DNA from: a virus
Lineage: Duplodnaviria; Caudoviricetes
Length of the DNA stretch: 64,000 nucleotides
Virus record (IMG/VR): IMGVR_UViG_3300031466_000001
Coordinates: 128,001 to 192,000 of that record
Reading direction: 5' to 3' (one strand)
Shown in pieces: positions 13,145-58,281 of the stretch; positions within the stretch are counted from its first letter, which is position 1, and each line of letters opens with the position of its first letter. A program made the translations under genes and the position numbers. The notes under the pieces were generated by a model. The model was not told the DNA's origin, searched no databases, and was given only the letters and a program-made list of their open reading frames with translations.

Positions 13145-13657
13145 TTAAAGGTAGTAGCTATGCTTCTTCTTTTCTTTCTTGCCACCTTCGTAGCTGAACG
13201 AAAGTGCACCGAAACCGCCGAACGGCTCGCGCTCGCGTTCTTCACGGCCTTCGAAACGATCATCCCGGTCTCCATGATCTTCGCTGTTCTTCCGGACGAT
13301 CCGTTCATACAGTTCAGCAGCTTCCTTGATATCGAAATTCAGAATACCAAGAGCTTCGCTGATGCGCACGTCGCGCTCTCTGTCCGGGTCCGTAAGGCAG
13401 CGAATTTGGTTGATCATGTCGTGAACGACGCGCAGAGCGTTGCTGATGTCGCGGCCCGGAATTTGTTCCATGGAAAAGGTTTCGCCGCAACGTTTGCACT
13501 CAAAGCGACCATCAGACAGAACACGAAGAGCAAGCTTGCCGCTTTTCTTGCGGTGGCTGCAACGAGATACAATGCGCTTTTCTTTCTCACGGAGTTGACG
13601 ACGCAGTTCGTAAAGATCGTTTCTTTCTTTGTCGAATTCTTTGTTTTTCTTACCCAT
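13145..13657 (-). CDS. Hypothetical zinc-finger protein, probably highly expressed
   Basis: CSH...CKRC; strong RBS AAGGAGG; codon usage rich in AAC/TTC/CGT/GAC. Confidence 0.75.
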   Translation of the reverse strand: MGKKNKEFDKERNDLYELRRQLREKEKRIVSRCSHRKKSGKLALRVLSDGRFECKRCGETFSMEQIPGRDISNALRVVHDMINQIRCLTDPDRERDVRISEALGILNFDIKEAAELYERIVRKNSEDHGDRDDRFEGREEREREPFGGFGALSFSYEGGKKEKKKHSYYL

Positions 13658-13886
13658 CTAGTATTCCTCCTTAATTTGGTTATTTTTTTGTTTTCTCCAA
13701 AGTAAGTTTTAATTAAACTTACTCTTGAGACCTTAATAATTAGTTTCGCAAATAATAAAATACTGCAATTTTTCTACGATCCGCTAGGTGAAATTAATCG
13801 ATATTAATCTCTCCTTTACAGAATATTATTTATTTTCTTTCTGGCCTTATAATATAGATTCGAAATATTTATTAATTTTTTTCGGT

Positions 13887-28143: not shown

Positions 28144-28764
28144 ATGGCTGATATGAATAGGTTTGCTGTTTCTGCTCTTAGTAGAGACAGAAAGGCAGAA
28201 GCATTGCCTGAAGAACTATTAGTTCATAAACCGACAGGTCAAATGCTGATTAAAAGACCGGATGGTCGTATTATATCATATGATAAAATTTCACGTCTTA
28301 AAACTCATATAGATTTTTTAGAATCCAGTCATAGTATTATTGGTATCGATGGTGATCTCTGTCTGTTGGAATTGGATCACATAGAACTACCGAATACTGT
28401 ACAATATGAATCTAATATACTTGACAACCCTCTTACTTTAGGCGATTCACCTGTATCGAAAATTTTAATATCCATGGATATTGATTGTATGGAATTTGTA
28501 AATGGGGAAGCTTTTATCTTAAGAGATCTTCCAAGCATCAGGTTCGAATTCGAATTTGTTGATGAAAATGATCAAACTCATTCTGTAACTAAAACTGTAC
28601 CTCTAAATAAACTATCGACAAATATTTTTAATGTATTGAATTACAGTCCTAATTCTACGCCTATGAATGCAACACTAAATGGTATTTACATTGAAGAAAA
28701 TCCTTCTAACGTTGGTAAGGTTTTGGAAAATATACTGCATAGTATATTAATTATTTTAGAATAA
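28144..28764 (+). CDS. Putative tail-associated protein
   Basis: Late promoter at 28097-28108, RBS AAGGAGG. Confidence 0.6.
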   Translation: MADMNRFAVSALSRDRKAEALPEELLVHKPTGQMLIKRPDGRIISYDKISRLKTHIDFLESSHSIIGIDGDLCLLELDHIELPNTVQYESNILDNPLTLGDSPVSKILISMDIDCMEFVNGEAFILRDLPSIRFEFEFVDENDQTHSVTKTVPLNKLSTNIFNVLNYSPNSTPMNATLNGIYIEENPSNVGKVLENILHSILIILE

Positions 28765-28783
28765 AAAGGCGGGTGATTTTTAT

Positions 28784-29218
28784 ATGGCAACTTTAAGAAA
28801 ATTAAAAAACTTCAGCGAAAATAACCTAACAACATTGGATAAAATTATCGCTATAACTCTCGGAGATTCCGATATAGATTGGTATGATGAAACCAAAATT
28901 TATAATGCCGATGATTTAATTATTAGGGTAAATCCTTCTACTGGGAAGAAGGAGATTTTATCTTGTAAAAAATCCGGGGCGACTGGTCCATTTGATATTA
29001 ATGATTGGCAAGTTGTAAACATGACCAATATTTCATCAACTAGCGTAATCCCAGTATCTGAAGAAGAACCTCCGAATCCAAAACCGAATATGATTTGGTT
29101 TAAAAATATGGGGGAGTCACCAGATTTCGGTGACAACATTATAATAATTATAGGTAATGTTAGTCTCGACGGAACAACCGAATTTTGGTTTGATTCCAAT
29201 AACAGAGACGGCGAATAG
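28784..29218 (+). CDS. Putative tail-fibre adaptor protein
   Basis: W/Y-rich carbohydrate-binding-like segment and a VSEEEPPNPKPNMIWF adaptor motif. Confidence 0.55.
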   Translation: MATLRKLKNFSENNLTTLDKIIAITLGDSDIDWYDETKIYNADDLIIRVNPSTGKKEILSCKKSGATGPFDINDWQVVNMTNISSTSVIPVSEEEPPNPKPNMIWFKNMGESPDFGDNIIIIIGNVSLDGTTEFWFDSNNRDGE

Positions 29219-29251
29219 AAAAACAGTAAAAGAAAGGGGGTAAGATGAGAA

Positions 29252-31405
29252 ATGAGCAGTAAAAACATTCAGATTCGTCACAAGAATGGTAGTGAATGGG
29301 ATAATTTATACCCAAAAACAAAAGCGGAATTAGTAGAAGGTCTTGATGAGCAACTTGCCGGAAAGGTTGATAAAGAAGAAGGTAAAGGTCTTTCTACTGA
29401 AGATTATACTACAGAAGAAAAGAATAAACTTGCGGGCATTGAGGAAGGAGCCAACAAATACGTTCATCCAACTAGTGCTGGTAATAAACATATTCCTTCT
29501 GGCGGTGCGCCTAACCAGGTACTTAAATATGGCGGTTCGTCAGGAACCGCAACATGGGGTGCTCTGACATCTGCAGATATTCCTACATTGGCTCTTAGTA
29601 AGATTTCCGATGCAGGTACAGCAGCTTCCAGAGATATCGGTACTTCTGCTGGTAATGTGCCTGTATTGGATAGCAATGGTAAACTTGATGTTAATGTCCT
29701 TCCTGCAATTGCTATTTCGGATACTTTCGTTGTCGGAAGCGAAGGAGAAATGCTGGGTCTTACTGCGGAAGTTGGTGATATCGCGGTACGATCGGATATC
29801 AACAAAACATTCATTTTGAGAGCAGAACCTGCATCCGTAGTTGGCAACTGGCAAGAACTTTTGACTCCGACTTCCCCTGTACAATCTGTTGCAGGTAAAA
29901 CCGGTGCAGTTACACTGGTTAAAGGTGACGTGGGACTCGGAAACGTCCAAAACTATGGAATAGCAACACAGGAAGAAGCAGAAGCCGGAACGTCCGATAC
30001 CGCGTACATGACGCCGCTTAAAACAGCGCAGGCGATTGCTGCACTTGCACCCGCGCCGGATGCTTCGGAAGTTTCGCTTAGTTCACCGAATTTCACTTCT
30101 ACCAACGTCCGGGATGGAATGGATGAACTTTTTCAATCTGTCAGTGATGGGAAAAATCAGATCGCTTCCGCCATCACTGACATGGGACAGTCTGCTTCAG
30201 GAGGCGACACGTTTGCGCAGTTGTCAAGCAAAATTCGGGACATCTCCAAGGACGCGAACGCGGCTGTTGGGGATGTTTTGACCGGTAAGACGTTTTATCA
30301 GGGCGGAGTAAAGCGCACCGGCACGATGCCCAATAACGGATCGGTTTCCCAAACGCTGACATCACAAGGCGAAGAATACACGATCCCGGAGGGATACCAC
30401 GACGGCACCGGCACGGTCACGACCGACATCGTGAATCTGTCCGCAGGAAATATCCGAGCCGGTGCGACGGTAGGCGGCGTTGATGGTACGTTCACTAGCG
30501 ACGCGACAGCCACGGCTGGTCAAATCTTGTCTGGCCGGACGGCGTATGTTAACGGCTCGAAGGTAACCGGCAGCATGATCAACAATGGAGCCGTCAGTCA
30601 AACCTTGACCACGCAGGGGGCGTCGTACACAATCCCGGCAGGTTATCACAATGGCAGCGGCACAGTCACGGCCAATATCACCAACTTGACGGCGGCCAAT
30701 ATCAAGGCTGGTACGACGGTCGGCGGCGTATCTGGAACATTCACAAGCGACGCAACCGCAACAGCCGCACAAATCTTGTCTGGCCGGACGGCGTATGTTA
30801 ACGGCTCGAAGGTAACCGGCACGATGCCAGTCAAAACAAATGATTATGGCGCACCGCGTACAGGCCAAACTGGGCGTCTGTATGTGACACCGGAAGCAGG
30901 ATACCATGACGGGACTGTAAGGGTCTATACGGACGACGCTAATTTTAATGCTGCCAATATCAAGTCTGGGGTTACGCTGTTCGGAATAACCGGTACGTAT
31001 GCGCCGATTTCCGTAGGTAGTACAACCCTGACATTTAACCGATCCGGCTCCGGTAACAATGTTACGTCGATTATCTATTATGCGAATTACACGCCGCCCA
31101 AGACAAACTTTTTGGGGTCGTTCCAAATACCCGTTACGTTCACAATCGGGAACATTGAATATAAAGGAGACCCGTTTAACAGCATCACGATCGGATATCC
31201 GACAAACCTAATCTTCGGCTATGGTTTGTACATTGTCGACCCGACCGTTAATGCAGAAATACAAATCAGCGCCATTTATAATAGTAGCACTGGCCGTATT
31301 CAACTACAGATTGGTAACCCGTCCACAGCAAGTCCTAAAGCGTTGTTTACCAATATCAGCACCAATAGCTTTACAGCGGGTTTACGGTATGTTTCATGGG
31401 AGTGA
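29252..31405 (+). CDS. Tail fibre protein (chimeric: phage-like N-terminus, foreign GC-rich C-terminus)
   Basis: W..LYPKT N-motif, KLAGIEEGANKY.HP, VQSVAGKTGAVTL, 83-aa TSDATAT...IPAGYH repeats; base composition changes at ~29932. Confidence 0.85.
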   Translation: MSSKNIQIRHKNGSEWDNLYPKTKAELVEGLDEQLAGKVDKEEGKGLSTEDYTTEEKNKLAGIEEGANKYVHPTSAGNKHIPSGGAPNQVLKYGGSSGTATWGALTSADIPTLALSKISDAGTAASRDIGTSAGNVPVLDSNGKLDVNVLPAIAISDTFVVGSEGEMLGLTAEVGDIAVRSDINKTFILRAEPASVVGNWQELLTPTSPVQSVAGKTGAVTLVKGDVGLGNVQNYGIATQEEAEAGTSDTAYMTPLKTAQAIAALAPAPDASEVSLSSPNFTSTNVRDGMDELFQSVSDGKNQIASAITDMGQSASGGDTFAQLSSKIRDISKDANAAVGDVLTGKTFYQGGVKRTGTMPNNGSVSQTLTSQGEEYTIPEGYHDGTGTVTTDIVNLSAGNIRAGATVGGVDGTFTSDATATAGQILSGRTAYVNGSKVTGSMINNGAVSQTLTTQGASYTIPAGYHNGSGTVTANITNLTAANIKAGTTVGGVSGTFTSDATATAAQILSGRTAYVNGSKVTGTMPVKTNDYGAPRTGQTGRLYVTPEAGYHDGTVRVYTDDANFNAANIKSGVTLFGITGTYAPISVGSTTLTFNRSGSGNNVTSIIYYANYTPPKTNFLGSFQIPVTFTIGNIEYKGDPFNSITIGYPTNLIFGYGLYIVDPTVNAEIQISAIYNSSTGRIQLQIGNPSTASPKALFTNISTNSFTAGLRYVSWE
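29857..29931 (+). repeat. 75-bp perfect direct repeat, copy 1
   Basis: acttttgactcc...aaaggtgacgt, identical to 31889-31963. Confidence 0.95.
30242..30826 (+). repeat. Tandem 249-bp (83-aa) fibre repeats, about 2.3 copies
   Basis: ttcactagcgacgc at 30491 and ttcacaagcgacgc at 30740; shared caaatcttgtctggccggacggcgtatgttaacggctcgaaggtaaccggca. Confidence 0.8.
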
Positions 31406-31455
31406 AATCGTGATGACGAGAGAGGACTCATTATACAGATCGCATCGGCGGCCAA

Positions 31456-31608
31456 GCCGAGCAATATAAACAAATCACCGGATTTGATTATGAAGCGTAA
31501 GGCTCCGCCGAATAGGCGGGGCCTCATAATCTGCACAGTGTGGTACAATTAGACGCTATGACGGCAGAAGAATATGAGCAGATTACGAGCGAGCCGTACA
31601 CACCCTAA
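31456..31608 (+). pseudogene. Two XkdX-like C-terminal remnants
   Basis: AEQYKQITGFDYEA* (31456-31500) and VVQLDAMTAEEYEQITSEPYTP* (to 31608), each followed by a hairpin. Confidence 0.6.
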
Positions 31609-31805
31609 TTAGGCGCAGAGACGTGTAATTAGACCCTGCTTAATGCGGGGTCTTTTTGTTGACTTCGTAGTGACAAAAGGGAAATTTTATACGATAATAG
31701 TGTTAAAGTACTCGTAAAGTACGATTACGTTACCGTCGCTGGAAGGGGTGGAAAAGTTCCGATGGACTTTACGAGCCTTGGAGAGTACGGCGTAGGAATC
31801 GCGTC

Positions 31806-32483
31806 ATGACTTCTCCCGATGGTATAAACTGGACGATTCGTTCAACTCCGGCGGATAACAACTGGTATTCCGTCACTTATGGCAACGGACTTTTGACTCC
31901 GACTTCCCCTGTACAATCTGTTGCAGGTAAAACCGGTGCAGTTACACTGGTTAAAGGTGACGTTGGTCTTGATAATGTTGAAAACTACGGTATCGCTTCT
32001 CAAGCTGATGCTGAAGCCGGAACAGCAAATAATAAATACATGACCCCTGCGAGAGTTAAGCAAGCAATTGATGCGTTTGCTGCTCCTAAAGAGCATCAAC
32101 ATGTCGCTTCGGATATCACTCAAGATTCGACTCACCGTTTTGTAACTGATGCAGAAAAAGCTGCATGGAATGCAAAAGCAGACAAAACGGTAGCTACTAC
32201 CAGCAATAACGGCTTGATGTCGTCCGCTGATAAAGCAAAACTCGATGGAATCGAAGCTGGCGCCAATAAGTACGTACATCCGACTGGCGATGGTAATCTC
32301 CATGTGCCTCCAACTGGAACCAGCAACAACAATAAAGTGCTGAAAGCAGGGGCTACTGCTGGAAGCCTTTCCTGGGGTTATGTTAATTGGAATGAAGTAG
32401 ATGGTAAACCTGTTAACCTTGCATCTATTGTGGTTTCTGGTACTGAACCTACAAATGCTGATTTCTGGTATCAGGAAATTTAA
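31806..32483 (+). CDS. Displaced C-terminal half of the original tail-fibre gene
   Basis: Resumes LLTPTSPVQSVAGKTG in the same translation as the 29252 gene; no clear RBS; ends in VVSGTEPTNADFWYQEI. Confidence 0.65.
   Translation: MTSPDGINWTIRSTPADNNWYSVTYGNGLLTPTSPVQSVAGKTGAVTLVKGDVGLDNVENYGIASQADAEAGTANNKYMTPARVKQAIDAFAAPKEHQHVASDITQDSTHRFVTDAEKAAWNAKADKTVATTSNNGLMSSADKAKLDGIEAGANKYVHPTGDGNLHVPPTGTSNNNKVLKAGATAGSLSWGYVNWNEVDGKPVNLASIVVSGTEPTNADFWYQEI
31889..31963 (+). repeat. 75-bp perfect direct repeat, copy 2
   Basis: Identical to 29857-29931. Confidence 0.95.
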
Positions 32484-32700
32484 TTTAATCTATTTGTGAA
32501 TAGTCTATAAATTAAATGAAAAAACACTTTTTGGGGTCGGATGGATTAAAAAGTCCATCCGACCGCCAAGTTTCTATTATAATATAGACAGACAACTATA
32601 TTTACCAAAATTTAAATGGAAAACAAAAATGTAATAAATATTTATTCTATCTGTATTTATAAGGAGAATTAACAAAATATAAAGAACGGAGGTATTTTAA

Positions 32701-33450
32701 ATGGCAAAAAATATACTACAGAAACAATACGTACCTGGTGTCGGATGGGTTGAGCTTCATCCAATTACTAAAGCGTCCAATATTATAGATTCAAACGGTC
32801 TTAGTGTACAAGAGCATATTGATGCTAAAAATCCACATGGAACTGATAAAAGTGATGTAGGTCTTGGTAATGTTGAAAACTATGGTATTGCATCTAAAAC
32901 TGAAGCCGAAGCCGGAACTGCAAGTAACAAGTACATGACACCACAAAGAACTTCCCAGGCAATTGCAGCTTTGTCGCCTGTGAAGTCGGTTGCTGGTAAG
33001 ACGGGTGCAGTGACTCTCGTAAAGGGAGATGTAGGTCTCGGAAACGTTGAGAACTATGGCATTGCATCTAAAACTGAAGCCGAAGAGGGAACTGCAAGTA
33101 ATAAGTATATGACTCCTGAGAGAACATCTCAGGCGATTGCTGTTCAAGCCCAGGCTATTGCAGATGAAGTTGAAAACAGATCAAAAGAGTATGCTGATCT
33201 GTTGATGGAACAGAAGATTATTGAAATTCCTTCTAGGTCAGGTAAAGACGAGAATGGAATTTTCACGATCGTTGAATATTACAGACCAAATAATACATTA
33301 GCACGAAAAACCGAACTTAGCGGTGGGTCGTCTCCGAATTATACAACAAGAACCATAACCTTCTATGCAGAAGACGGTATGACTGTGACAAAAACAGTCA
33401 CAAGAACCTTAATTTATGATGAGGATGGAGATTTCCTGCGAGAAGAATAA
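32701..33450 (+). CDS. Tail fibre/adaptor protein
   Basis: W.ELHP.TKA N-motif, NPHG..KSDVGLGNVENY, two GIAS..EAE.GT..NKYMTP repeats; late promoter at 32622-32633. Confidence 0.8.
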   Translation: MAKNILQKQYVPGVGWVELHPITKASNIIDSNGLSVQEHIDAKNPHGTDKSDVGLGNVENYGIASKTEAEAGTASNKYMTPQRTSQAIAALSPVKSVAGKTGAVTLVKGDVGLGNVENYGIASKTEAEEGTASNKYMTPERTSQAIAVQAQAIADEVENRSKEYADLLMEQKIIEIPSRSGKDENGIFTIVEYYRPNNTLARKTELSGGSSPNYTTRTITFYAEDGMTVTKTVTRTLIYDEDGDFLREE

Positions 33451-38894: not shown

Positions 38895-41024
38895 TTATTT
38901 CCTCTTGCTCTTCAGAGACATAATCGGCATACTGCGTAATTTGAAACTCTTGACAGCCTGCTCCATAAAATACTCTTGGACATTGAATGGAACAGGACTT
39001 TTCAAAAGTTCGTACTGATTGTCTTTATTGAGAATGTAGGTGTTGAATGTGTCGCGGAAATACATTTTCAAAATAGACAAGAGTTTATTTCTGGAATTTT
39101 CGTCCGTAATCGGAACCAGAAGTTCAACCCGTCTGTCCAAATTCCGCGTCAACATATCAGCACTTGAAATGAAAATATCTGACTTTCCATTATTGTAGAA
39201 GAAGTAAATTCTACTATGCTCTAGAAATCTACCAACAACACTCTTGATGCTGATGTTCGAATTGATTTTCTTCATCGAGCATATACCTCTACAGATAATG
39301 GATATCTTGACACCCTGCTCAGAGGCCTCATACAGCTTCTTGATAATACCCAGATCAGAAAGGGAGTTAAGCTTCAACGTAATGAAAGCTTGTCTACCCT
39401 TTTGAGCATTCTCGATCTCTCGATCGATAAGCTGATACAATCTCAATCTCAGATTGTACGGAGCATAGAAAATTTTGCTCACTTCGTCTCTGGGATCGGA
39501 GAAACCTGACAAGACATTAAATATCGTCAACAGGTCATCCGCTATTTTGCTGCTGGATGTGAAGTAGGAAATATCGGTATAGATTGACGCAGTCTTGTCG
39601 TTGTAATTTCCTGTACCGATATGGCAATACGTTTTGAGATTTTTCTTTCCTTTCCTCACAACCAATATAAATTTACAATGTGTTTTCAACTCCTCAATAC
39701 CATAGATCAATTTACAGCCGGATACTTTTAGTTTTTCTATCAACGACATATTTCTATTCTCATCAAACCTTGCTTTAATTTCGAGAAGAACACTTACCTG
39801 CTTTCCTCTTTCAGCAGCCCTACACAACGCCTCGACAATCGGGGACTCCGCAGAAGATACTCTATACAGAGTCAATTTGATTGCCAAGACATCATTATCC
39901 TCGGCCGCATGTTCGAGGAATTTGATAACCGGTGTGAACGACTCGTAAGGGTGATGAAGAATGAGATCGCCGTTGTCGATAGCAGTAAACATATCGTGCT
40001 CGCCGATCAGATCTTCTGGATACTGAGGGTTGAACGGGTCGTACTCGTAAGCCGCATTTCTTATCGGCTTACTTAAGAGAAACGACATGTCTACGATGTT
40101 TTCACATTTAAACACTTGCCTCTTGTCAATGTCGAAGATTTTGGTCAGAAGTTTGAGGGTTTCCTTAGGAACATCACTGTCGATATCCATGAAGATGGGT
40201 TTACTAAACTCCCGTTTAATGAGAGTTTCCCTCATTCGGTCGACAATATAAATATCCCGTCTTCCCTCAATTTCAATATCCGCCTCACGAATGATTCTCA
40301 TACATCCCCTATAGATGATACTCTTGTTGATAAATACCTTGTGGAGAAAATTAAAGATAATATCCTCCAACAAGATATATCGTTCTTCATCGCTCTCGTC
40401 AGTCTCAATCTTGTACAAACGATCAAGACCATGGAGTGGGATGATGGACATTACATTCAGATTTGGATTTTTCTTGTCCCCTAGAGAAGCTATTATGCAT
40501 AGCTGCTTAGATTTAATAAGGGGAAATTCTTTGGTTGAGTCAAAGGTGATCGGGGTCAGCAACGGATAAATGTTTCTTTCGAAAAGCTTTCTTACATAAT
40601 CAACTTCCTTTTCACTGAGATGCTTGAACTTACAAATCGTGAAATTGTTTTTACGCAGTTTCTTTCTCAGTTTTTCAAAGCTTTCTTGCTGGATTTCTTT
40701 GAAAGAAATAATTTCCCGGAGCAAGAGTTCATATTCTTGCTCCGGGAGAAGACCAGCAATATCCGTTTCTGTATACCCCAATCTGAGTTTATTAAGGATA
40801 GATGAAAATCTAACCATAATAAACTCATCCAGGTTCGATTCCGTGATACCCAAGAACTTAAGTCTCTCCAAAAGAGGAACCTCAGTTCTCATAGTTTGAT
40901 GGAGAACCCTTTTATTGAACTCCATCCAACTCAATTCACGATTCATATAGAATCCTGGATTATTAAACTTTGACCTAATCCTATCTCTTTCAACGTCGAA
41001 GAGATCACTAAGATTGTTAGTCAT
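38895..41024 (-). CDS. ppk1: Polyphosphate kinase 1
   Basis: NRELSW..FN.RVL, LLERLKFLGI..SNLDEF.MVR, HHPYESF, K.TLYR, EIKARFDE..N, LKTHCK, GTGNYN, RFLEHSR, SSAD...RNLDRRVE. Confidence 0.95.
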   Translation of the reverse strand: MTNNLSDLFDVERDRIRSKFNNPGFYMNRELSWMEFNKRVLHQTMRTEVPLLERLKFLGITESNLDEFIMVRFSSILNKLRLGYTETDIAGLLPEQEYELLLREIISFKEIQQESFEKLRKKLRKNNFTICKFKHLSEKEVDYVRKLFERNIYPLLTPITFDSTKEFPLIKSKQLCIIASLGDKKNPNLNVMSIIPLHGLDRLYKIETDESDEERYILLEDIIFNFLHKVFINKSIIYRGCMRIIREADIEIEGRRDIYIVDRMRETLIKREFSKPIFMDIDSDVPKETLKLLTKIFDIDKRQVFKCENIVDMSFLLSKPIRNAAYEYDPFNPQYPEDLIGEHDMFTAIDNGDLILHHPYESFTPVIKFLEHAAEDNDVLAIKLTLYRVSSAESPIVEALCRAAERGKQVSVLLEIKARFDENRNMSLIEKLKVSGCKLIYGIEELKTHCKFILVVRKGKKNLKTYCHIGTGNYNDKTASIYTDISYFTSSSKIADDLLTIFNVLSGFSDPRDEVSKIFYAPYNLRLRLYQLIDREIENAQKGRQAFITLKLNSLSDLGIIKKLYEASEQGVKISIICRGICSMKKINSNISIKSVVGRFLEHSRIYFFYNNGKSDIFISSADMLTRNLDRRVELLVPITDENSRNKLLSILKMYFRDTFNTYILNKDNQYELLKSPVPFNVQEYFMEQAVKSFKLRSMPIMSLKSKRK

Positions 41025-42397: not shown

Positions 42398-43624
42398 TTA
42401 TTTTTCTTCGTCGATCTTGTGAATCCTGGCAATTAAATCATTGATAAGGAAAAGATTAATATACATCAACATCCTATAGGTAGACACTGTGTTAGTCTTA
42501 TTTACAGTAAGGATGAGATTTTCGTAATCAAAACTGTAGTCGGTTTCATTATCAAGAACATCATTATCTTTGAAAACAAAAACTTTTATAAGTGAATCCA
42601 TAGAAATACCTTGTTTAAGATAATATTTAATGCAATTCTTAATTCCATCATTGATTAAATGTGAAACATCCAACGTGTCGGGAGTTCTATTTGTCGAAAC
42701 CTTAAATAGTGGTGCAATATAGAGCTCCCACCCCGCAGGAGGTTCGACTAGATTGTAAAGATTATTTATAGTGAAAATGGGAATGATCTTATTGTCGTTC
42801 TCAATATCGAATTCAATTTGCTCAATAATATCCTTTCTTTCAGTAAAGAAATAATACAAACCGGATGTATTGAATTCAGTGGTAACGGTGAAATTAATTG
42901 CATAGGAGTCGGCAACAAATCCCCTCTTAGATCCATCATCCATAGAAAGACCGGTGAACATAGCATCGACTGTAGCAGGATAATATCTGAAAAACTCATC
43001 ATTTCCTGTAGAATTCTTCATCTTATAGGTAAGAGGATATAAAGAGCATTTATTGAAATAGTCCAAAATGGATTTAATATCATCTCTATCTATTCCGGCA
43101 ACACATGCCACACCTTTGATCAAATTTCTATGGATGTTACTTTCGAGAAATGTATTTATATAGAATGGATGCTCATGCCTTATCACGTTTTTCAAATAAA
43201 AATATTGATTAATTTGTTCCATTTGCTGTTCAACTATAATTGTACAATCAAAATTCATTCTCATACGATTCATTAAGAATTTAATATGAGTATTATTGTC
43301 TTTATCTTCAAAGAATGGTTGCAGGTTTCCATAATCCAAGTCAATATAATTATCGGTTATTCTAGATGTAAGGAGGGTTCCTGCAAGAAAAGCATCATCA
43401 TTAGATTCAATTCTAGGTCTTACAATAAGCATTGGTTTTCTTCTCTTAATAAATTCTTTATTGGTGTTATCGAAAATATTGAAATATCTAAACGCTGCTG
43501 TCGAGGATATGTTCACCGTATTGAAATAGTTCTTAGGAAATAATTTTTTAATATATTCCGTTATAAAAGCGGTCATATTGCCGAATGTATGAGCAAGTGA
43601 CATGTGAGCTACCGCTATCTCCAT
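42398..43624 (-). CDS. Conserved hypothetical protein, possibly structural
   Basis: ~408-aa ORF, RBS AGGAGTG. Confidence 0.6.
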   Translation of the reverse strand: MEIAVAHMSLAHTFGNMTAFITEYIKKLFPKNYFNTVNISSTAAFRYFNIFDNTNKEFIKRRKPMLIVRPRIESNDDAFLAGTLLTSRITDNYIDLDYGNLQPFFEDKDNNTHIKFLMNRMRMNFDCTIIVEQQMEQINQYFYLKNVIRHEHPFYINTFLESNIHRNLIKGVACVAGIDRDDIKSILDYFNKCSLYPLTYKMKNSTGNDEFFRYYPATVDAMFTGLSMDDGSKRGFVADSYAINFTVTTEFNTSGLYYFFTERKDIIEQIEFDIENDNKIIPIFTINNLYNLVEPPAGWELYIAPLFKVSTNRTPDTLDVSHLINDGIKNCIKYYLKQGISMDSLIKVFVFKDNDVLDNETDYSFDYENLILTVNKTNTVSTYRMLMYINLFLINDLIARIHKIDEEK

Positions 43625-43705
43625 TTCGATCACTCCTTTTAAATATTGTTTTTGTGAGTTAAAAGAAAAAAACAAACCTTACCCATCAGGTAAGGTTTGT
43701 TTATC

Positions 43706-44266
43706 TTATTTAAAGAATTGAACGATACCTTTCTCTGTCATAATGCCTCCAATACGCATACCAAAGTGATCCTTTTTCATGATGACCACTTCAAATCCAG
43801 CCTCTTCCAGCGTCTGTAAAGCTTTAGGATGAGCCAATCCCTGATAAGTGAAAATTGCTTCGCAGCATAAGTCATTCAATTCACCATCAGGATCTTCGAT
43901 GAGATTGGCTTTGGAGACGATATTATCATCTGTTTCAATTTCTTTCAGCCGCCTGATAAGATTTTGGACTTTTTCGGCTTTATAATACAATAGTTCTATA
44001 GCGAGATTGAATGGGACTCTAGCTATAGCCCTAACACCGATTGAATACAAATATCTGAAAATTTCTTCTCGTTGGGTCGAAGTTGTATCGAACGTTTTGT
44101 TAACATGAATGCCACCATAGAAGATAGAATCTAAATTTTCTCTGCGATGGCTTTGCAATTCTTCGAGAACGAATATTCCATTCTCATCATTATATTCAAT
44201 GAGTATAAAAGCTCCCTTAAAACGATCTTTATAATAAATAGGTTTTTCAATTTTAATAATTCCCAT
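43706..44266 (-). CDS. Hypothetical early protein
   Basis: Early motif at 44313-44322; RBS AGGAGG. Confidence 0.7.
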   Translation of the reverse strand: MGIIKIEKPIYYKDRFKGAFILIEYNDENGIFVLEELQSHRRENLDSIFYGGIHVNKTFDTTSTQREEIFRYLYSIGVRAIARVPFNLAIELLYYKAEKVQNLIRRLKEIETDDNIVSKANLIEDPDGELNDLCCEAIFTYQGLAHPKALQTLEEAGFEVVIMKKDHFGMRIGGIMTEKGIVQFFK

Positions 44267-44353
44267 GAAGATTTTCCTCCTAAGAATTTATTTATTATTG
44301 ATATTCACGTTTATAATATATATTTTTATAAACTAAATTTACAAAAAAACACT

Positions 44354-44385
44354 AAAAAAATCACTAACGCTTCAACGTTAGTGAT
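44354..44385 (-). terminator. Intrinsic terminator of the putative ncRNA
   Basis: atcactaacg/cgttagtgat stem with a U7 tail on the - strand. Confidence 0.75.
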
Positions 44386-44592
44386 CAAAGTTTTAATCGA
44401 CCAGGCGGCCACCGGAAACCGTCCATCGCGCCCGTCTATGCGCACGAGGTCGCAGCAAAAATAGCCGTCAGGAAAGCGGGTCGCAGGGCAGCGACCGATC
44501 CCCGCTAACCCAGACAGCTCCGGGAAGTGCCGCAATACCGCATGAGGGCTTCGCTCGGCCATCCGCCGAAACACCCGGTGACCGTCCTGGTT
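44354..44592 (-). ncRNA. Structured rod-like non-coding RNA (6S-like candidate)
   Basis: 190-nt core is 66% GC (126/190 counted) in an AT-rich context; 5' and 3' ends pair; AACT-N6-TA promoter (44592-44603) ends right at the stem; own terminator. Confidence 0.7.
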
Positions 44593-44641
44593 ACTAAATA
44601 GTTCCATAAATAATAAAAAAATTATATAATTTTTTTATTAT

Positions 44642-45169
44642 TTATGAAGTTTTTTGTGCTTGATATTTTCTATAATAGTCATCTTTAGTATACAGGGTAT
44701 CCATAAACTTTCCATCTCTCCAAAACTCAACACCTTCGCATCCGGTTCTACTTTCATAGATATCGAAAGCACTATCGATATCCGGGCCATTATATAAAAC
44801 AACAGCCTCACCACGCGAAGATCTGAAGACAAGGAAGAGATCGTTTGCTTTAACATCCATTTTTGTTTTGAGGAACTCTTTTGCCATCATATCACGTGCA
44901 TCCAGTATCTGCTTCTTGATCCTGAATGCATAAAAATCTTTGTCATCGTAAAGATTAATAAATTTTGTGCGTTCTCTTTCTTCTTTATTTTGCATCAGAT
45001 CGATATAGACAATCGAATCCGTATCGATCACAAACCACTTGTCATTGGGATATTTGAATCTGAGATACAGGGACCAGAACTCATTGTGGCTCTGATCATG
45101 AAGATAGCAAACTTTCCTCGTCTTGGAGTAAAGGGCATAGATTTTATACATGTTTGCCATGTTTATCAT
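44642..45169 (-). CDS. Hypothetical protein
   Basis: ORF with RBS, operon context. Confidence 0.65.
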   Translation of the reverse strand: MINMANMYKIYALYSKTRKVCYLHDQSHNEFWSLYLRFKYPNDKWFVIDTDSIVYIDLMQNKEERERTKFINLYDDKDFYAFRIKKQILDARDMMAKEFLKTKMDVKANDLFLVFRSSRGEAVVLYNGPDIDSAFDIYESRTGCEGVEFWRDGKFMDTLYTKDDYYRKYQAQKTS

Positions 45170-46155: not shown

Positions 46156-46214
46156 GTCTTACCACCCATAGTTTTTATTTTTTACCATATTGTACCTGTA
46201 AAAATTAATTGAAA

Positions 46215-46260
46215 AAATGATGATGAGAAGTAGAGTTTTCTCTACTTCTCATCATCATTT
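46215..46260. terminator. 21-bp perfect-stem terminator
   Basis: aaatgatgatgagaagtagag-tttt-ctctacttctcatcatcattt. Confidence 0.75.
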
Positions 46261-47639
46261 TATTCATCGTCGTCGTCATCATCGTAACCGTACGCGCCGG
46301 AGTGGGTCTCTTCAGGAGAAGACATACGATATTTATTGACAAACCTCATTGCAGAGTCGGAACGATTCTTAAACATTTTCAAATGTGCTTCTCTACTAGA
46401 GATTAAGATCTCCCTTGCTTTCTCAAGAGCCTCTTCTATAGTCAACTCTTGATTACCGGCCAAAATATATCGGACTGTCGTCATGAGCTCTTTCAGAGAT
46501 GCCATAGGGAAACCTTCGCTATATTTCACGAAAAGTTCAACCACACCATCATCGCTGTCTGGAATGTTATCATTTTTGAAAGTTTTGTATTCAGCGAGGA
46601 TGTCCCCGATTTTACGGCTTTCAAAGTAATATCTCCGGGTTAATTCCGACGGATTGTCGATCTTATAAGTACGGTCGAAACGACCGGACCTATTCATAAA
46701 TGCTGGGTCAATTTTATCAGGGTAATTAGTAGTTCCGATGAAGAATATGCCAGATTTAACTTCAATACCGTCAAGAATATTCAGTAATTCGGATCGATTA
46801 CGTTCATTGACAAACGAATCAAAGTCTTCGATGATAATGATTGCTTTCTTTCCATCTAACGCTTTCACTAAAGAAGACAAAATCTTCGGAAGATTTCTAA
46901 CTCGAGTAATAACAATTTTAGTGATTTTGGGCAAGCGTCTAATGATTTCACGAATAGTTGCGCTCTTCCCATTACCAGGGTCGCCATAGAGGATGATTCC
47001 TCGCTTATATGGAATCTGCATTTTTTCATAAATTCTCTTAGTTTCGTCCCTGAAAAAGATCTCAATATCATTCATGACTTCACTAAGAGGGGAGTTTTCC
47101 TCAAATACAAGATTTTCATCCGCTACTTTTTTCTTAATTGCAGCAACTGGTCTAATGGGCTCATCGTCATTATCAGTAATTTCGATATACTCACCAGCAC
47201 TACACTTGAAATCGATATCCTTAAATAAGTTCTTGGTTGAATCTTGCCTAAGAAGTTTCTTGATATTTTTAGAAAATTTCCTAAGATAATCTGTATCTAC
47301 TAAAAACACACAATAGATCGAAAAGTTCTTAGTTGTATAGAAGAGAATTGAATTTATCTTTTTGGATACTGCAATACGATGAAAGTTATCGAAATTGATC
47401 GACATGTCAAAAATGTTAACTTCGCTAGGCTGTGGAAGCGTATCGGCATATTTATAAACGTTACCTATATCCTTAAATTTGAATTTTTTCATAATTTCTT
47501 TCATTATTTCTTCTCGATGAACATAAAATTCAATTCTTTGATATTCGCCTTTTTCAAGACAAACTTCATATTCAGGATGTACCTCGTTCACCAACTTGAG
47601 TAACGACTGTTCCATTGAATAACTGAAATCAGATGCCAT
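46260..47639 (-). CDS. AAA+ ATPase
   Basis: IPYKRGIILYGDPGNGKS, IIIEDFD, LNILDG, GTTNYPDKIDPA...RSGRFD. Confidence 0.9.
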   Translation of the reverse strand: MASDFSYSMEQSLLKLVNEVHPEYEVCLEKGEYQRIEFYVHREEIMKEIMKKFKFKDIGNVYKYADTLPQPSEVNIFDMSINFDNFHRIAVSKKINSILFYTTKNFSIYCVFLVDTDYLRKFSKNIKKLLRQDSTKNLFKDIDFKCSAGEYIEITDNDDEPIRPVAAIKKKVADENLVFEENSPLSEVMNDIEIFFRDETKRIYEKMQIPYKRGIILYGDPGNGKSATIREIIRRLPKITKIVITRVRNLPKILSSLVKALDGKKAIIIIEDFDSFVNERNRSELLNILDGIEVKSGIFFIGTTNYPDKIDPAFMNRSGRFDRTYKIDNPSELTRRYYFESRKIGDILAEYKTFKNDNIPDSDDGVVELFVKYSEGFPMASLKELMTTVRYILAGNQELTIEEALEKAREILISSREAHLKMFKNRSDSAMRFVNKYRMSSPEETHSGAYGYDDDDDDE

Positions 47640-48148: not shown

Positions 48149-49564
48149 TCAAATATTATTGAACTCGTAAAGACCAATCAATTGGTCTTTAAGAAGATTG
48201 AATTCATTGTTAAACAACCCGTCGTTCCTAGAAATGAACATATTAAGTCTCGGATTAAATGCCCTGAACGCCTTTTTCAGTTCTTTCGTTTTCAGTGACA
48301 CAATATTGAGAACGTCACCATCGAAGTCCGCGTTCAAGACAGTGAGAACTTGAATCGGAATCGACATGGTATAATCCTCTTCGTGTGCACGTTTAATGTC
48401 AATAACTTTCATACAGAGTACCGATCCATAGTTAATGGTTGGATTCCGGTTAATGATCATAGCCGGTTTCCATTTCTTAACGATGTACATCATCACTTCA
48501 TAGATCTTAGGGTCGAAGTTTATTGTTGCCTTATACCATTCCTCATATGCTTCGTTATGAGTAATTCTCTCCATTTTGGCCAGAAGAGCAATTATCTCAT
48601 ATTTGTACAATTCGAGGAACGTTAAATACCCCAGACGAATTTCATCTGCTCTCAAAGTTGGATCGGGGATAACAACGTTTCTTGCAGAAAAGTTGATTCG
48701 ACCACCAAGAAGCTGATACCTGATATGCCCATCTTTTTGGTTAACTTGATTGAATACAAGTTGCCAAAGTTCATTAACTTTCTTTTGAATTACAGACAAG
48801 GTTACAGCTTCTCCGAGTTTTTCTTTCTTTTTCCTCTGACGAGTCGTCAGGAGAGACTCATCATGAAGAAGTCTACTTAATGCAAAGATCGTTTCATATT
48901 TTCTATCAAAGCTACTAAAGAAGAAGTTTTCACCTCTAAACGAGACCGGTCGAAGAACCGACGAGTATACCGGGATACAAGATGCAAAAACTTTGTCCTT
49001 ATCCCTCATAATCTCATCGAAAAGTTCCGTTTGTTTATTCTTCTTCTTTTCGTAGAAATAATCCATAATCTCTTCGAATCTTTCACGAAACTCGATCAAC
49101 CCAATACCTTTAAATGGACTTTTTCCTTTCTTGCTAATAATTTCACCATCTCTGGTGATTTCTTTGTCGTATTCAATGATTTCACTGAAAGCTTTATCGC
49201 CAATGGCGACTTTAAGCATTCTATAGAACAACGGTTGAATAATAGCATAATCGCCGAGTTTAATCCAACCGGTAACTTTCATATTCACGTCACGAAAGAT
49301 TACTTTATGTCCACAAATTTTACATACCTCGCCTTCGTATACACGACCTTTAAGTTCCTTACATCTACAGCTATATCTTTCCGAGAATGCATCTTCGTCT
49401 TCCCAATCGGTCGCAAACCTAGGCGATTGAATACCATTGAATGATTTTTCTTCTTTATTTTTTATGAATGCGTAATCCGTAACTTCAAAACCGTTTCCGG
49501 TAATAAAACTAATTTCACATTGTTCATCCCAACTAATTTTCTTCAATTGTACAGTTTTACCCAT
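48149..49564 (-). CDS. rpoC: Split RNA polymerase beta' subunit, N-terminal catalytic part (probably non-virion RNAP)
   Basis: Zn finger CRC...CKIC, GGRINFSARNVV.PD, INRNPTI, NADFDGD; early promoter at 49641-49650. Confidence 0.93.
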   Translation of the reverse strand: MGKTVQLKKISWDEQCEISFITGNGFEVTDYAFIKNKEEKSFNGIQSPRFATDWEDEDAFSERYSCRCKELKGRVYEGEVCKICGHKVIFRDVNMKVTGWIKLGDYAIIQPLFYRMLKVAIGDKAFSEIIEYDKEITRDGEIISKKGKSPFKGIGLIEFRERFEEIMDYFYEKKKNKQTELFDEIMRDKDKVFASCIPVYSSVLRPVSFRGENFFFSSFDRKYETIFALSRLLHDESLLTTRQRKKKEKLGEAVTLSVIQKKVNELWQLVFNQVNQKDGHIRYQLLGGRINFSARNVVIPDPTLRADEIRLGYLTFLELYKYEIIALLAKMERITHNEAYEEWYKATINFDPKIYEVMMYIVKKWKPAMIINRNPTINYGSVLCMKVIDIKRAHEEDYTMSIPIQVLTVLNADFDGDVLNIVSLKTKELKKAFRAFNPRLNMFISRNDGLFNNEFNLLKDQLIGLYEFNNI

Positions 49565-51352: not shown

Positions 51353-51817
51353 CTAACTTCTCGCTCGTTTATTCAAAATGCGCCTTATTTTCCATGTGTA
51401 TTTTTCTGTCAATCCCGTTTTTCTATCACACTTTACAAGATTTTCTTTAACCAAGCCCAAATCGAAGTCGTCATCGTCGATTACAACATAGCCCGTTATA
51501 AGTACCATTTTAGTAATTGTTTCGAGGAAAGCCTTGATTTCAAGATCCCGTCGACCCAACTCATCAGTTTTTCCAATTATTCTATCAGCAATAACGTTGT
51601 TGTAGTGTCTGAATATGTTTCTAAGCTCCTCCACGGTACGACCTATTCTCCAAGAAGAACTCACTATAATCCACGCATTATTTTCAACAAGAATATTTCT
51701 TAGAGTTCTAATTGCTCTTGGAGACATTTCAAGACCAAAATGTACTTCTGGATCGGATGGGTATGGATGATCTTCACAATTCATTACTCCGTCTATGTCC
51801 AAAAATATAAGTTTCAT
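51353..51817 (-). CDS. HAD phosphatase (Swiss-Army-knife RNA-repair type)
   Basis: LIFLDIDGVMN, IVSSSWR, R..EI, YVVIDDD. Confidence 0.85.
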   Translation of the reverse strand: MKLIFLDIDGVMNCEDHPYPSDPEVHFGLEMSPRAIRTLRNILVENNAWIIVSSSWRIGRTVEELRNIFRHYNNVIADRIIGKTDELGRRDLEIKAFLETITKMVLITGYVVIDDDDFDLGLVKENLVKCDRKTGLTEKYTWKIRRILNKRARS

Positions 51818-53385: not shown

Positions 53386-54309
53386 CTAGATTTTACTTAG
53401 ATCTAATTTGATATCAAAAATACTTTCCAAAGGAAAACCTGCTCGTTTTTCCCTTCCTCCACCGCCAAGTGTCGCGGCAATTTCATTAAGTTTGATATCG
53501 TCTTTCATTGTACGAATGGAAGCTCTTCCAGTACTTAAAGAGCAAACCATTGCGATATCAATATCACTATTATACTTACAAATTTGAGATGCGATCGTAG
53601 AAATATGTTGTTCGGCAAAAACAACACCAATGCGATAGCCGGATCTGCTTGTGTAAGTTTTCATTTCCCGTCTTTTACCATCTACATATCTTCTTATTCT
53701 GAACTTTTCTTCTTTAAGAAGAATTTTTTCTTCAGATGTCCATTCCGTTTCAATATTTTCAGTAAATCTTTCAATGAACCTTTCCTTCCCTTTAATAGAC
53801 AAAAGAAGGTTAAGTTCATTGGCCTTCTCATTATGAAGACGCATCCATTCAAATGTGTCCCATTGACGAACTAATTCAGAAAATGCTACTATCTCGTCTT
53901 CTTTATCTATGAAACCTTGTTCTAATAAATAATCAGACCACAAGGAAGTGCCACATGTTTTAACCATGCGTCCTTTAACTTCCTTTTCCTTTGATACAAA
54001 TGCCCATGTATATTGGTTAAGCCACATTGCACGCTCATGATGGTCGAGAAGTATAAATTTCGTATTAGGTAATTCTTTATCTGCTTTTTCTATGAGTTTT
54101 GCTGTATTTTCATCAACGCTTATATCAGTTATAACAACCATGCTATAAGAAAAGTAACCTCGTAGAAGCGATCCGACGAAATCAGAAACTCGCCTATTGA
54201 TATTCTCATAATCACATAGATCATACGAGACTGAGGGAAAAGTTCTTTGGGAAATTACTACTGCTCCTATCCCATCAGTATCTATATGAGAAAAATGTTT
54301 GATAATCAT
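53386..54309 (-). CDS. DHH/DHHA1 phosphoesterase (NrnB-like)
   Basis: SHIDTDG, ITD, LDHH, GGGGR..RAG. Confidence 0.88.
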   Translation of the reverse strand: MIIKHFSHIDTDGIGAVVISQRTFPSVSYDLCDYENINRRVSDFVGSLLRGYFSYSMVVITDISVDENTAKLIEKADKELPNTKFILLDHHERAMWLNQYTWAFVSKEKEVKGRMVKTCGTSLWSDYLLEQGFIDKEDEIVAFSELVRQWDTFEWMRLHNEKANELNLLLSIKGKERFIERFTENIETEWTSEEKILLKEEKFRIRRYVDGKRREMKTYTSRSGYRIGVVFAEQHISTIASQICKYNSDIDIAMVCSLSTGRASIRTMKDDIKLNEIAATLGGGGREKRAGFPLESIFDIKLDLSKI

Positions 54310-56987: not shown

Positions 56988-58199
56988 TCAAAGAATCAAC
57001 GTTTCAGGTTTAACTTCGGTAATTTTAGCCGTACTATTATGGAATTTTTTCATTGAAAGATTGAGCAAGGATGATGAAACCCGTGCTGCTGTAAGGCCGA
57101 TATTGTCAATTTTAAGTTTATCATACATTGCCCCTGCACATACCCGACAAAGCTTTTTGCTTACGCAATACAACGGGGAACGCATTTTGACAATTTGTCC
57201 AACGAATTTATTCATGTTGGATTCATCAAGGAGGACAAGTTTACCATTCTGAATAATATAACGATACAAGAAATCATTAATATTTTTATCTGTAAGAAGA
57301 ACGGTCATATATCCTTTACTACCACAATCGCTACCTGGTTTATCAAGTACAACAGCCTGTAGAGCAGCAATGATTTGCTTACTGAAATAACCCGAGACAG
57401 CAGTTCCGATAGCTTTAGGATATGCACCTGTAATAATCGCATTCGCATAAACTGGAAGATCTTCTTTCTTAATACCTTCCATAAGATTAGTTTCAACAAT
57501 ATCAAATTCACCAGTGGAAGGATTAAATACTGGTCCCTTCATAACACTGATATTTTTAAAGTTGTTATCAAAGGAACCGCGAGCACCAGATTTATACAAA
57601 TCAAGACCATGGTCCCCTTCCAACTCTTTAGCTGCAACATCTAGAAGTTCTTTTTCGATTTTAACAGCAGTAATAACATCACCCTTTTTGAGTTTATCTT
57701 TATTTTCCTTAATAAGTTCATCCCGTCTTTTGATAACTTTGGGATGTGGTTTCAGTGTACCCATAGTGAAAGAGCCACTAATTACAGAGTGAAATTGCAT
57801 TCCGAGCCATTGGGTTCGATTGAGATAATCGACCATTGAAGGGACGTCAATTTCATCGTTCAAGAGAGCTTTAGCAAGCTTATCTTCGATTTTATTCACC
57901 GCGGCAGAATTAAGTGGAGTGTTAATATATCCAAGAACTTTTTGGAATTTTTCCTCCACGATAAGTTTATTATAAATAAACAAACCTGCGTTTGTTGTAA
58001 CCTTAGTTGTATTAAAATATTCTCCGGGATTGAGGTCAAATTCATCGCTGGTTTTCATACGGGGAGGAATAATCTTAAATTTTCCATTTTCAACAACTGA
58101 TCTTGATGCAAATAGTGAAAGAAGTAGAGAAAATGTTATATCTTCTCTTTTTAAAGAGAGTAAATATTCTTTATCTTTTTGGGATAATTTTCTACCCAT
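56988..58199 (-). CDS. rpoC: Split RNA polymerase beta' subunit, middle/C part (probably virion RNAP)
   Basis: SGARGS, L.EG, KAIGTA.SGY..K, DCGS, RSPLYC....CRVCAG, NIG......SMKKFH; late motif at 58226-58237. Confidence 0.9.
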   Translation of the reverse strand: MGRKLSQKDKEYLLSLKREDITFSLLLSLFASRSVVENGKFKIIPPRMKTSDEFDLNPGEYFNTTKVTTNAGLFIYNKLIVEEKFQKVLGYINTPLNSAAVNKIEDKLAKALLNDEIDVPSMVDYLNRTQWLGMQFHSVISGSFTMGTLKPHPKVIKRRDELIKENKDKLKKGDVITAVKIEKELLDVAAKELEGDHGLDLYKSGARGSFDNNFKNISVMKGPVFNPSTGEFDIVETNLMEGIKKEDLPVYANAIITGAYPKAIGTAVSGYFSKQIIAALQAVVLDKPGSDCGSKGYMTVLLTDKNINDFLYRYIIQNGKLVLLDESNMNKFVGQIVKMRSPLYCVSKKLCRVCAGAMYDKLKIDNIGLTAARVSSSLLNLSMKKFHNSTAKITEVKPETLIL

Positions 58200-58281
58200 C
58201 CTAATCACCTCTAGCCGTTATTAATTATAAATCTGTTGTTATAACCAAAAAAAAGAAGACCCCCTTGCGATTATCTATATA

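Follow-up and report, generated by a model that had tools for sequence, protein, structure and literature searches.

A block of GC-rich DNA in an AT-rich phage genome raises the question of whether it is the gene for an RNA and, if so, how that RNA is made and what it might do. The block lies in a stretch of 64,000 nt (64 kb; here "the window"), in which the 190-nt interval starting at 44398 has the highest GC content of all (0.663; mean 0.359, sd 0.061), 5 sd above the mean. A GC island had been claimed here by an earlier, sequence-only reading, and it is borne out as the GC maximum of the window, with 65.6% GC over the 192 nt of 44400-44591 and 17% and 22% in the flanks. That reading took the island for a stand-alone, rod-shaped RNA, possibly a 6S-like decoy for the host's RNA polymerase, with a new class of RNA as the fallback. 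On our analysis the island, in a jumbo phage distantly related to AR9, is best explained as a gene for a non-coding RNA that is stable and highly structured; the gene is specific to the lineage and was probably acquired horizontally. We hold this account, taken as a whole, at even chances. That the locus yields a real, expressed and structured non-coding RNA is quite probable in itself; the choice of a stable, trans-acting RNA over a cis element or junk is evenly poised.

The island sits in a spacer of 375 nt on the - strand, between a 175-aa ORF (45169-44642) and a 186-aa ORF (44266-43706). Read on that strand, the spacer holds an AT-only near-palindrome, the AACTATTTAGTA motif, the 192-nt block, a terminator, an early promoter and a Shine-Dalgarno sequence, followed by the 186-aa gene (Table 1). 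Several metagenome assemblies end within the near-palindrome. For the two flanking proteins we found no relatives beyond this lineage and no Pfam or PHROG function, and their single-sequence AlphaFold models (pLDDT 43 and 37) were too poor for a structure search. In one copy of the locus (L048, IMG 3300005281; 99.1% identical) the element is intact, and the 186-aa gene has its Shine-Dalgarno weakened from AGGAGG to AGAAGG (equivalent to 44279) and a premature TAA about ten codons in (equivalent to 44234), from which this early gene looks dispensable. Just 5′ of the RNA, TTATTTATGGAAC (13 bases; 44601-44622, - strand) matches CRISPR repeat family DR66 at its 3′ end (E 0.33), a likeness that is probably due to chance.

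Table 1. Features of the locus, numbered from the first base of the window
Feature	Positions	Strand	Description and basis
AR9-type early promoter AAATATATATTAT	44313..44325	-	exact match to three annotated AR9 early promoters; precedes 186-aa gene
Intrinsic terminator	44352..44386	-	12-pair stem, 4-nt loop, T-run (stem-loop 44386-44359; terminator scan)
GC-rich structured RNA core	44400..44591	-	192 nt, 65.6% GC; first to last closing-helix base
Closing helix, 3′ arm CCGGTGGCCGCCTGGT	44400..44415	-	inverted-repeat search and fold
Direct repeat, copy 2 GGACGGTTTCCGG	44412..44424	-	ends at 3′ boundary of inner unit
Inner unit, 163 nt, head-to-tail in contig L021	44412..44574	-	L021 1742-1898 repeat 1579-1735, period 163
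Central long hairpin	44450..44535	-	common to minimum-energy and rod models; pair probabilities 0.5-0.96
Direct repeat, copy 1 GGACGGTCACCGG	44575..44587	-	ends at 5′ boundary of inner unit; 11/13 identical to copy 2
Closing helix, 5′ arm ACCAGGaCGGTCACCGG	44575..44591	-	pair probabilities 0.9-1.0
Late-promoter-like motif AACT-N6-TA, AACTATTTAGTA	44592..44603	-	T at -8, non-consensus vs AR9
AT-only near-palindrome, 60 bp	44596..44655		30-nt arms, 87% complementary; covers upstream-gene stop codon and promoter-like motif

All the helices named in the sequence-only reading are present, and so is the strand preference that it drew from G-U pairs: the RNA of the - strand folds at -98.0 kcal/mol (z -2.95; one of 200 dinucleotide shuffles was equally good) and that of the + strand at -78.4 kcal/mol (z -2.13), about 20 kcal/mol weaker, because of the roughly ten G-U pairs of the former. 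The RNA ends before the intrinsic terminator, and a GC-rich helix (44591-44575 with 44415-44400) of 16 bp and one bulged A, with pair probabilities of 0.9-1.0, clamps both of its ends. Most of the excess stability comes from this closing helix; the inner 163 nt by themselves have a z of -0.6 and do no better than shuffles, in circular and linear form alike. The central hairpin, also robust, is made up of the helices UUGCGGCA/UGCUGCGA, AGCUGUC/GACGGCU, AGCGGG/CCCGCU and UCGC/GCGA. The rod that had been drawn by eye exists as a near-optimal alternative (-96.4 kcal/mol, with a biggest internal loop of 8x5 nt), but the minimum-energy fold, 1.6 kcal/mol lower at -98.0, is a four-way branch, the two models differing in the part between the closing helix and the central hairpin. 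High GC in the stems is expected of structural RNAs in thermophiles with AT-rich genomes.

The intrinsic terminator predicted 3′ of the element is present, stem-loop and T-run alike. The AACT-N6-TA motif that had been proposed as a late promoter is also found at the position claimed for it (44603-44592), but it carries a T for the A that is essential at -8 in AR9, where late promoters follow the consensus A(-11)ACA-N6-U-A/G(+1) and transcription in vitro is lost with any substitution from -11 to -8 (PMC5449584). On this comparison a private late promoter for the RNA is doubtful, although the mismatch is not decisive given the evolutionary distance: in the one structural protein compared, our phage and AR9 share only 21-24% identity, and the polymerase of our phage may differ. 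The idea of a stand-alone unit with its own late promoter is weakened both by the non-consensus -8 position and by the RNA-derived contig described below, which is continuous with the upstream genes. A sigma-70-like TTCATA-16-TATAAT also lies upstream (44648-44621), such matches numbering six in the scanned region against 6.1 in shuffles. Downstream, the transcription unit of the RNA is bounded by the AR9-type early promoter. A relative of 66% identity has a similar promoter and leader (L045, ~3260-3290), and from these sequence matches the promoter of the virion RNA polymerase seems to be conserved across very distant AR9-like phages. Further upstream, a hairpin with a T-run, recognised by eye, follows the AAA ATPase gene (46195-46262, - strand). 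The RNA-derived contig starts at 46158, a few bases past an AACT-N6 motif (46173-46164) like the one before the RNA, a position that may point to some use of AACT motifs by this phage.

That the element is transcribed was seen through an odd protein match. A phmmer search with the 93-aa ORF that crosses the island (44326-44607) returned a 100-aa variant (P0010) that switches frame, implying a rearranged template, and its source is a contig of 1,898 nt (L021) from IMG 3300003327, the metatranscriptome of a thermophilic compost community that degrades switchgrass, cultured with 1% ionic liquid (Wu et al. 2016, mSystems, PMC5155067). The contig begins 3 nt before a 73-aa gene, spans the 73-aa, 239-aa and 169-aa genes and the AT palindrome, and enters the element. 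The element is thus transcribed on the - strand, at least as the read-through tail of the upstream operon; together with the fold (z -2.95) and a frame-shifted ORF (see below), this supports the reading of the island as a structured RNA of the - strand. Within the element L021 joins 44412 back to 44574 (...GATGGACGGTTTCCGG then GTGTTTCGGCGG...), re-entering 163 nt upstream, and 152 bases of a second round are read after the junction. In the paired metagenomes of the 1% and 0.5% ionic-liquid cultures (3300002541 and 3300002542; PMC5155067), by contrast, the locus is an ordinary linear single copy (L010 and L005). As L021 comes from a metatranscriptome and the paired metagenomes are linear, the join was made at the level of RNA or cDNA and not in the assembled DNA. 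The junction is known from this one contig, no second contig with it being found in the collections searched.

The junction falls within a palindromic CCGG, the top four pairs of the closing helix, so placed that the cut is ambiguous among five equivalent position pairs, and both boundaries of the unit share the motif GGACGGU-NN-CCGG; in L021, copy 2 (GGACGGTTTCCGG) is followed by GTGTTTCGG. Taking CCGG as given, being a palindrome, 7 of the 9 upstream bases are identical at the fixed register, for which our own post-hoc estimate of the probability is ~0.003. We consider it most likely that the locus encodes an accessory RNA, freed from the tail of the operon transcript at the clamp helix, stable, trans-acting and possibly circular. 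The clamp helix would be the processing signal, holding the two GGACGGU-NN-CCGG copies face to face; a site-specific endonuclease would cut after each copy, and a ligase would join the ends of the 163-nt piece to give exactly the junction seen in the RNA. Resistant to nucleases, the resulting RNA would bind a host or phage factor in trans, as a decoy or a scaffold. Whether the inner unit really forms a circle in vivo is a point on which we lean to doubt while taking the possibility seriously, and the full proposal of an intron-independent phage circular RNA, its 163-nt core cut at the two motif copies and ligated during infection of thermophilic bacilli, is put forward as tentative.

RNase III and a ligase are a geometrically possible specific route to such a circle, the cut being ambiguous within CCGG. 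No RNA ligase, kinase partner or dedicated endonuclease was found in the 64-kb window. The one related gene lies some 7 kb from the element and encodes a 154-aa protein (51353-51817, - strand) with a phosphatase domain of RNA-repair type (PF18143, HAD_SAK_2, the HAD domain found in 'Swiss Army Knife' RNA-repair proteins; E 8e-22); a DHH phosphoesterase is encoded near it (53386-54309). Group I introns follow a 5′-exon U and end in a terminal G, and group II introns run from GUGYG to AY. A self-splicing intron or self-cleaving ribozyme was rejected because the boundary bases here break both of these rules and because neither the locus nor the permuted dimer of L021 matched Rfam, its group I, group II and small-ribozyme models included. 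An IS200/605 or integron circle was rejected because the junction is in RNA and not in the DNA assemblies, and a retron RNA because no reverse transcriptase is encoded nearby and, by our own reasoning, a head-to-tail junction is unlike branched msDNA.

Either the inner 163 nt were circularised or the head-to-tail join arose by reverse-transcriptase template switching at the helix, and the contig fits both: hardly any site could favour such a switch more than a palindromic CCGG on a very stable helix, next to a direct repeat matching at 11/13 positions. The 3300003327 library was made from fragmented RNA, as random-primed cDNA, with SuperScript II. This enzyme would stall at the closing helix during cDNA synthesis and, leaving its template at the CCGG of the 5′ arm, resume on the same four bases in the 3′ arm, by then freed, which would yield the same junction sequence. 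If so, the element could be a linear one that works in cis and has no trans function: it would form the 3′ end of the mRNA of the upstream operon and, before the terminator, block exonucleases or serve as an insulator. The continuity of L021, which runs from the upstream genes across the AT palindrome and on into the element, a promoter-like motif that is non-consensus at an essential position, the use of SuperScript II on fragmented RNA, and a junction seen in one contig only, in palindromic CCGG beside a direct repeat, would all fit. However, a 192-nt multi-helix structure with a separate canonical terminator far exceeds what the protection of a 3′ end needs, and the syntenic operon of the relatives ends with a plain terminator only. 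The assembler, moreover, took the junction over the linear exit, suggesting that junction reads were not rare in the sample. We therefore judge this cis-acting alternative rather unlikely, and keep to an accessory RNA released at the clamp helix as our preferred reading.

The distribution of the element bears on where it came from. The adjacent 425-aa protein (42398-43675) has homologues at 21-24% identity in AR9/PBS1, phiR1-37, the Staphylococcus S6 group and BpSp, and this homology, together with pieces of multisubunit RNA polymerases, places the phage among the jumbo phages as a distant relative of AR9. In metagenomes this protein has 241 homologues, on contigs of up to 270 kb, which make up a large uncultivated AR9-like jumbo-phage clade, far more diverse than the isolates. 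Among the 120 homologues listed of the 241, identity is 42-70%, the contigs are of 210-270 kb and the sources are compost, gut and other metagenomes; one homologue is labelled Romboutsia ilealis. The 1-2% ionic-liquid community is dominated by Bacillus (e.g. B. thermoamylovorans), Thermobacillus and Brevibacillus, and from this make-up we infer a host among the thermophilic compost bacilli.

The three closest relatives (L044-L046; 70, 66 and 62% identity) keep the order of RNA polymerase beta′, AAA ATPase, small genes, structural protein and polyphosphate kinase, with different small genes at the spot and no 150-nt window there above 49% GC. As an auxiliary gene of a jumbo phage, the polyphosphate kinase, full length with PPK1 domains (38895-41024, - strand) and syntenic in all three, is unusual. 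A covariance model of the element found nothing in these three relatives, in the complete genomes of AR9, phiR1-37, S6 and BpSp, or in the rest of the window, where the element occurs once; it also found nothing in a 98%-identical IMG/VR relative (G001), which stops at ~34.4 kb of the window, short of the locus. DNA similarity gave no match among 50,697 phage records and, for plasmids, only sub-significant matches of 30-50 nt. Exact and gapped pattern scans of IMG/VR found no copy (five matches were tandem repeats in GC-rich coding DNA), a pattern scan of a 185,579-species genome set likewise found none, and in JGI metagenome contigs 17 of 18 pattern matches were chance 20-mers in GC-rich genes. 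As the model finds nothing in the relatives, the element is best seen as a recent, lineage-specific addition of foreign composition to a variable region, and was probably acquired. That close relatives lack it is equally compatible with an accessory function and with a passenger that can be dispensed with.

Could it then be a passenger or a piece of selfish DNA, either MITE-like with 16-17-bp terminal inverted repeats or a captured GC-rich scrap, and transcribed merely by position? Its ends are indeed inverted repeats (16 bp and one bulge), its composition is foreign, and the nearest relatives carry different small genes at the spot, without the element. Other GC-rich foreign pieces occur in the same genome as well, for instance at 29.9-32 kb of the window. 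Against this, there is no target-site duplication (flanks ...TAGTA vs CGATT...), the element occurs once in the window and not at all in G001, and no related copy turned up, with the patterns tried, in phages, plasmids, IMG/VR, JGI contigs or the 185,579-species set. Nor does any frame resemble a gene fragment, and the G-U bias favours the transcribed strand, all of which leaves passenger DNA an unlikely explanation. As to the other GC-rich pieces themselves, 28361-32766 (4.4 kb, with a GC-rich tail-fibre cassette) corresponds to 836 nt in G001 (C1:68660-69495), so that the two phages, nearly identical, differ by an indel of this cassette. At 13145-13705 another GC-rich patch (52-57%) holds overlapping ORFs of 170 aa (-) and 181 aa (+), the former with no Pfam match and with an AACA-type late motif upstream (~13692).

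The RNA belongs to no described family. At gathering thresholds Rfam 15 gave no match in the 64-kb window, and at E<=10 nothing meaningful over 44250-44700, with 6S, SRP, Y RNA and phi29 pRNA all unmatched; ARAGORN found no tRNA or tmRNA. This bears directly on the function first proposed, in which an RNA that mimics an open promoter would sequester the host's sigma-A RNA polymerase during take-over. Like 6S RNA (RF00013; B. subtilis 6S-1 and 6S-2), ours is ~190 nt long, ends in a long helix and has a rod-like alternative fold (-96.4 vs -98.0), and the phage does carry multisubunit RNA polymerases of its own, as had been noted (beta pieces at 56988-58208, beta′ at 48149-49564). However, the Infernal search suggested for 6S and SRP returned nothing for the element, although the 6S model detects the control genomes of E. 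coli, B. subtilis and Lactococcus. The minimum-energy fold is branched, and the rod has no internal loop larger than 8x5 nt, which is small beside the large central bubble of 6S. Since the element is missing from AR9, phiR1-37, S6, BpSp and the three closer relatives, all of them two-polymerase phages, it is not part of a conserved take-over programme. A 6S-like target is hence very improbable, and a new RNA class, the fallback, stays a candidate.

Via the neighbouring proteins we collected about 20 near-identical copies from public metagenomes, 15 of them full-length. That the 93-aa ORF is a real protein gene can virtually be dismissed: one frame is open across the island, as chance alone leads one to expect at 66% GC, but a run of five U is shortened to four in 10 of the 15 full-length copies, shifting the frame, no Shine-Dalgarno precedes the ATG, and phmmer against 1.84 billion cluster representatives found no genuine homologue, returning only the ORF itself, P0010 and two spurious tandem-repeat proteins. 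There was likewise no PHROG match for this ORF and no Pfam match in any open frame of the island, and gene callers gave 93, 89 or 56 aa, or no gene, depending on the copy. On these grounds the island is non-coding.

The same copies have four variable sites in or beside the element, in five haplotypes. A44579G turns an A-U pair of the closing helix into G-U, pairing being kept on the - strand only, and C44440U turns C-G into U-G, again paired on the - strand; the U4/U5 indel at 44461 lies in the unpaired 3′ internal loop of the central hairpin, and C44399U just beyond the closing helix. All four variants are compatible with the modelled - strand structure, the two one-sided changes carrying no statistical weight. 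The covariation that had been suggested as a check is not there to be seen: among these copies we counted no compensatory pairs, no homologue was found elsewhere and the tested relatives lack the element, and a covariation test is impossible because the five haplotypes differ at just four sites. Polymorphism per 100 nt is 1.6 in the element, 1.1-1.6 in the flanking genes and 4-7 in the AT-rich spacers.

To our knowledge, the structured RNAs of jumbo phages are almost unexplored. If our proposal of a ligated 163-nt core is true, it would be the first such circular RNA in a bacteriophage, with a new processing signal, and would extend the recent non-intronic circular RNAs of Bacillus to phage. 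A real circle would also mean that a clamp helix and a repeated motif make a compact, sequence-defined signal for circularisation, which could reveal the bacterial machinery for it and might serve for making stable RNAs in bacteria. If the junction is artefactual, it would instead be a warning on calling circular RNAs from assembled metatranscriptomes. The paired public metagenome and metatranscriptome data make the question of the circle directly testable.

Among known systems, the packaging RNA of phi29 (RF00044) is likewise a structured RNA of a Bacillus phage, of ~170 nt, with a closing helix of its 5′ and 3′ ends and a multi-helix junction; our RNA, however, does not match its model, and we know of no use of packaging RNA by AR9-like myoviruses. 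Phage morons are inserts of promoter, gene and terminator with a foreign composition. Like them, the element is of foreign GC content, is inserted between two genes of a variable region, brings its own terminator and is missing in relatives; unlike them, its cargo is a structured RNA and not a protein gene, and its own promoter is doubtful. The Correia elements of Neisseria are transcribed MITE hairpins that are cleaved by RNase III. They too are of ~100-200 bp, intergenic and co-transcribed, with terminal inverted repeats that form a long RNA helix, whereas our element is single-copy, without target-site duplication, and no family of it was found. In archaea, circular RNAs arise at processing stems by bulge-helix-bulge cleavage and ligation by RtcB, and the likeness is a helix formed by the flanks, with circularisation of the inner RNA that is excised (a putative circle in our case). 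The phage element differs from these in having no bulge-helix-bulge, with one bulged A ten pairs below the junction, and in its bacterial host.

Our RNA also resembles, by description, DucS, a non-coding RNA of Bacillus altitudinis with dual linear and circular conformations, for which circles of ~165-200 nt are experimentally established, the mechanism being unknown (PMC10504365). Both are Bacillus-associated non-coding RNAs of ~200 nt, with permuted RNA reads and no intron features (PMC10504365). The circles of DucS were validated by RNase R and northern blots, and the phage junction comes from one assembled contig. A further likeness is a stem near the junction, which DucS needs for circles to form. 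The junction of DucS runs from the transcription start (or ~30 nt inside) to a fixed 3′ U at the terminator (PMC10504365), whereas in the phage element it lies atop the helix that clamps the 5′ and 3′ ends, between two copies of one motif.
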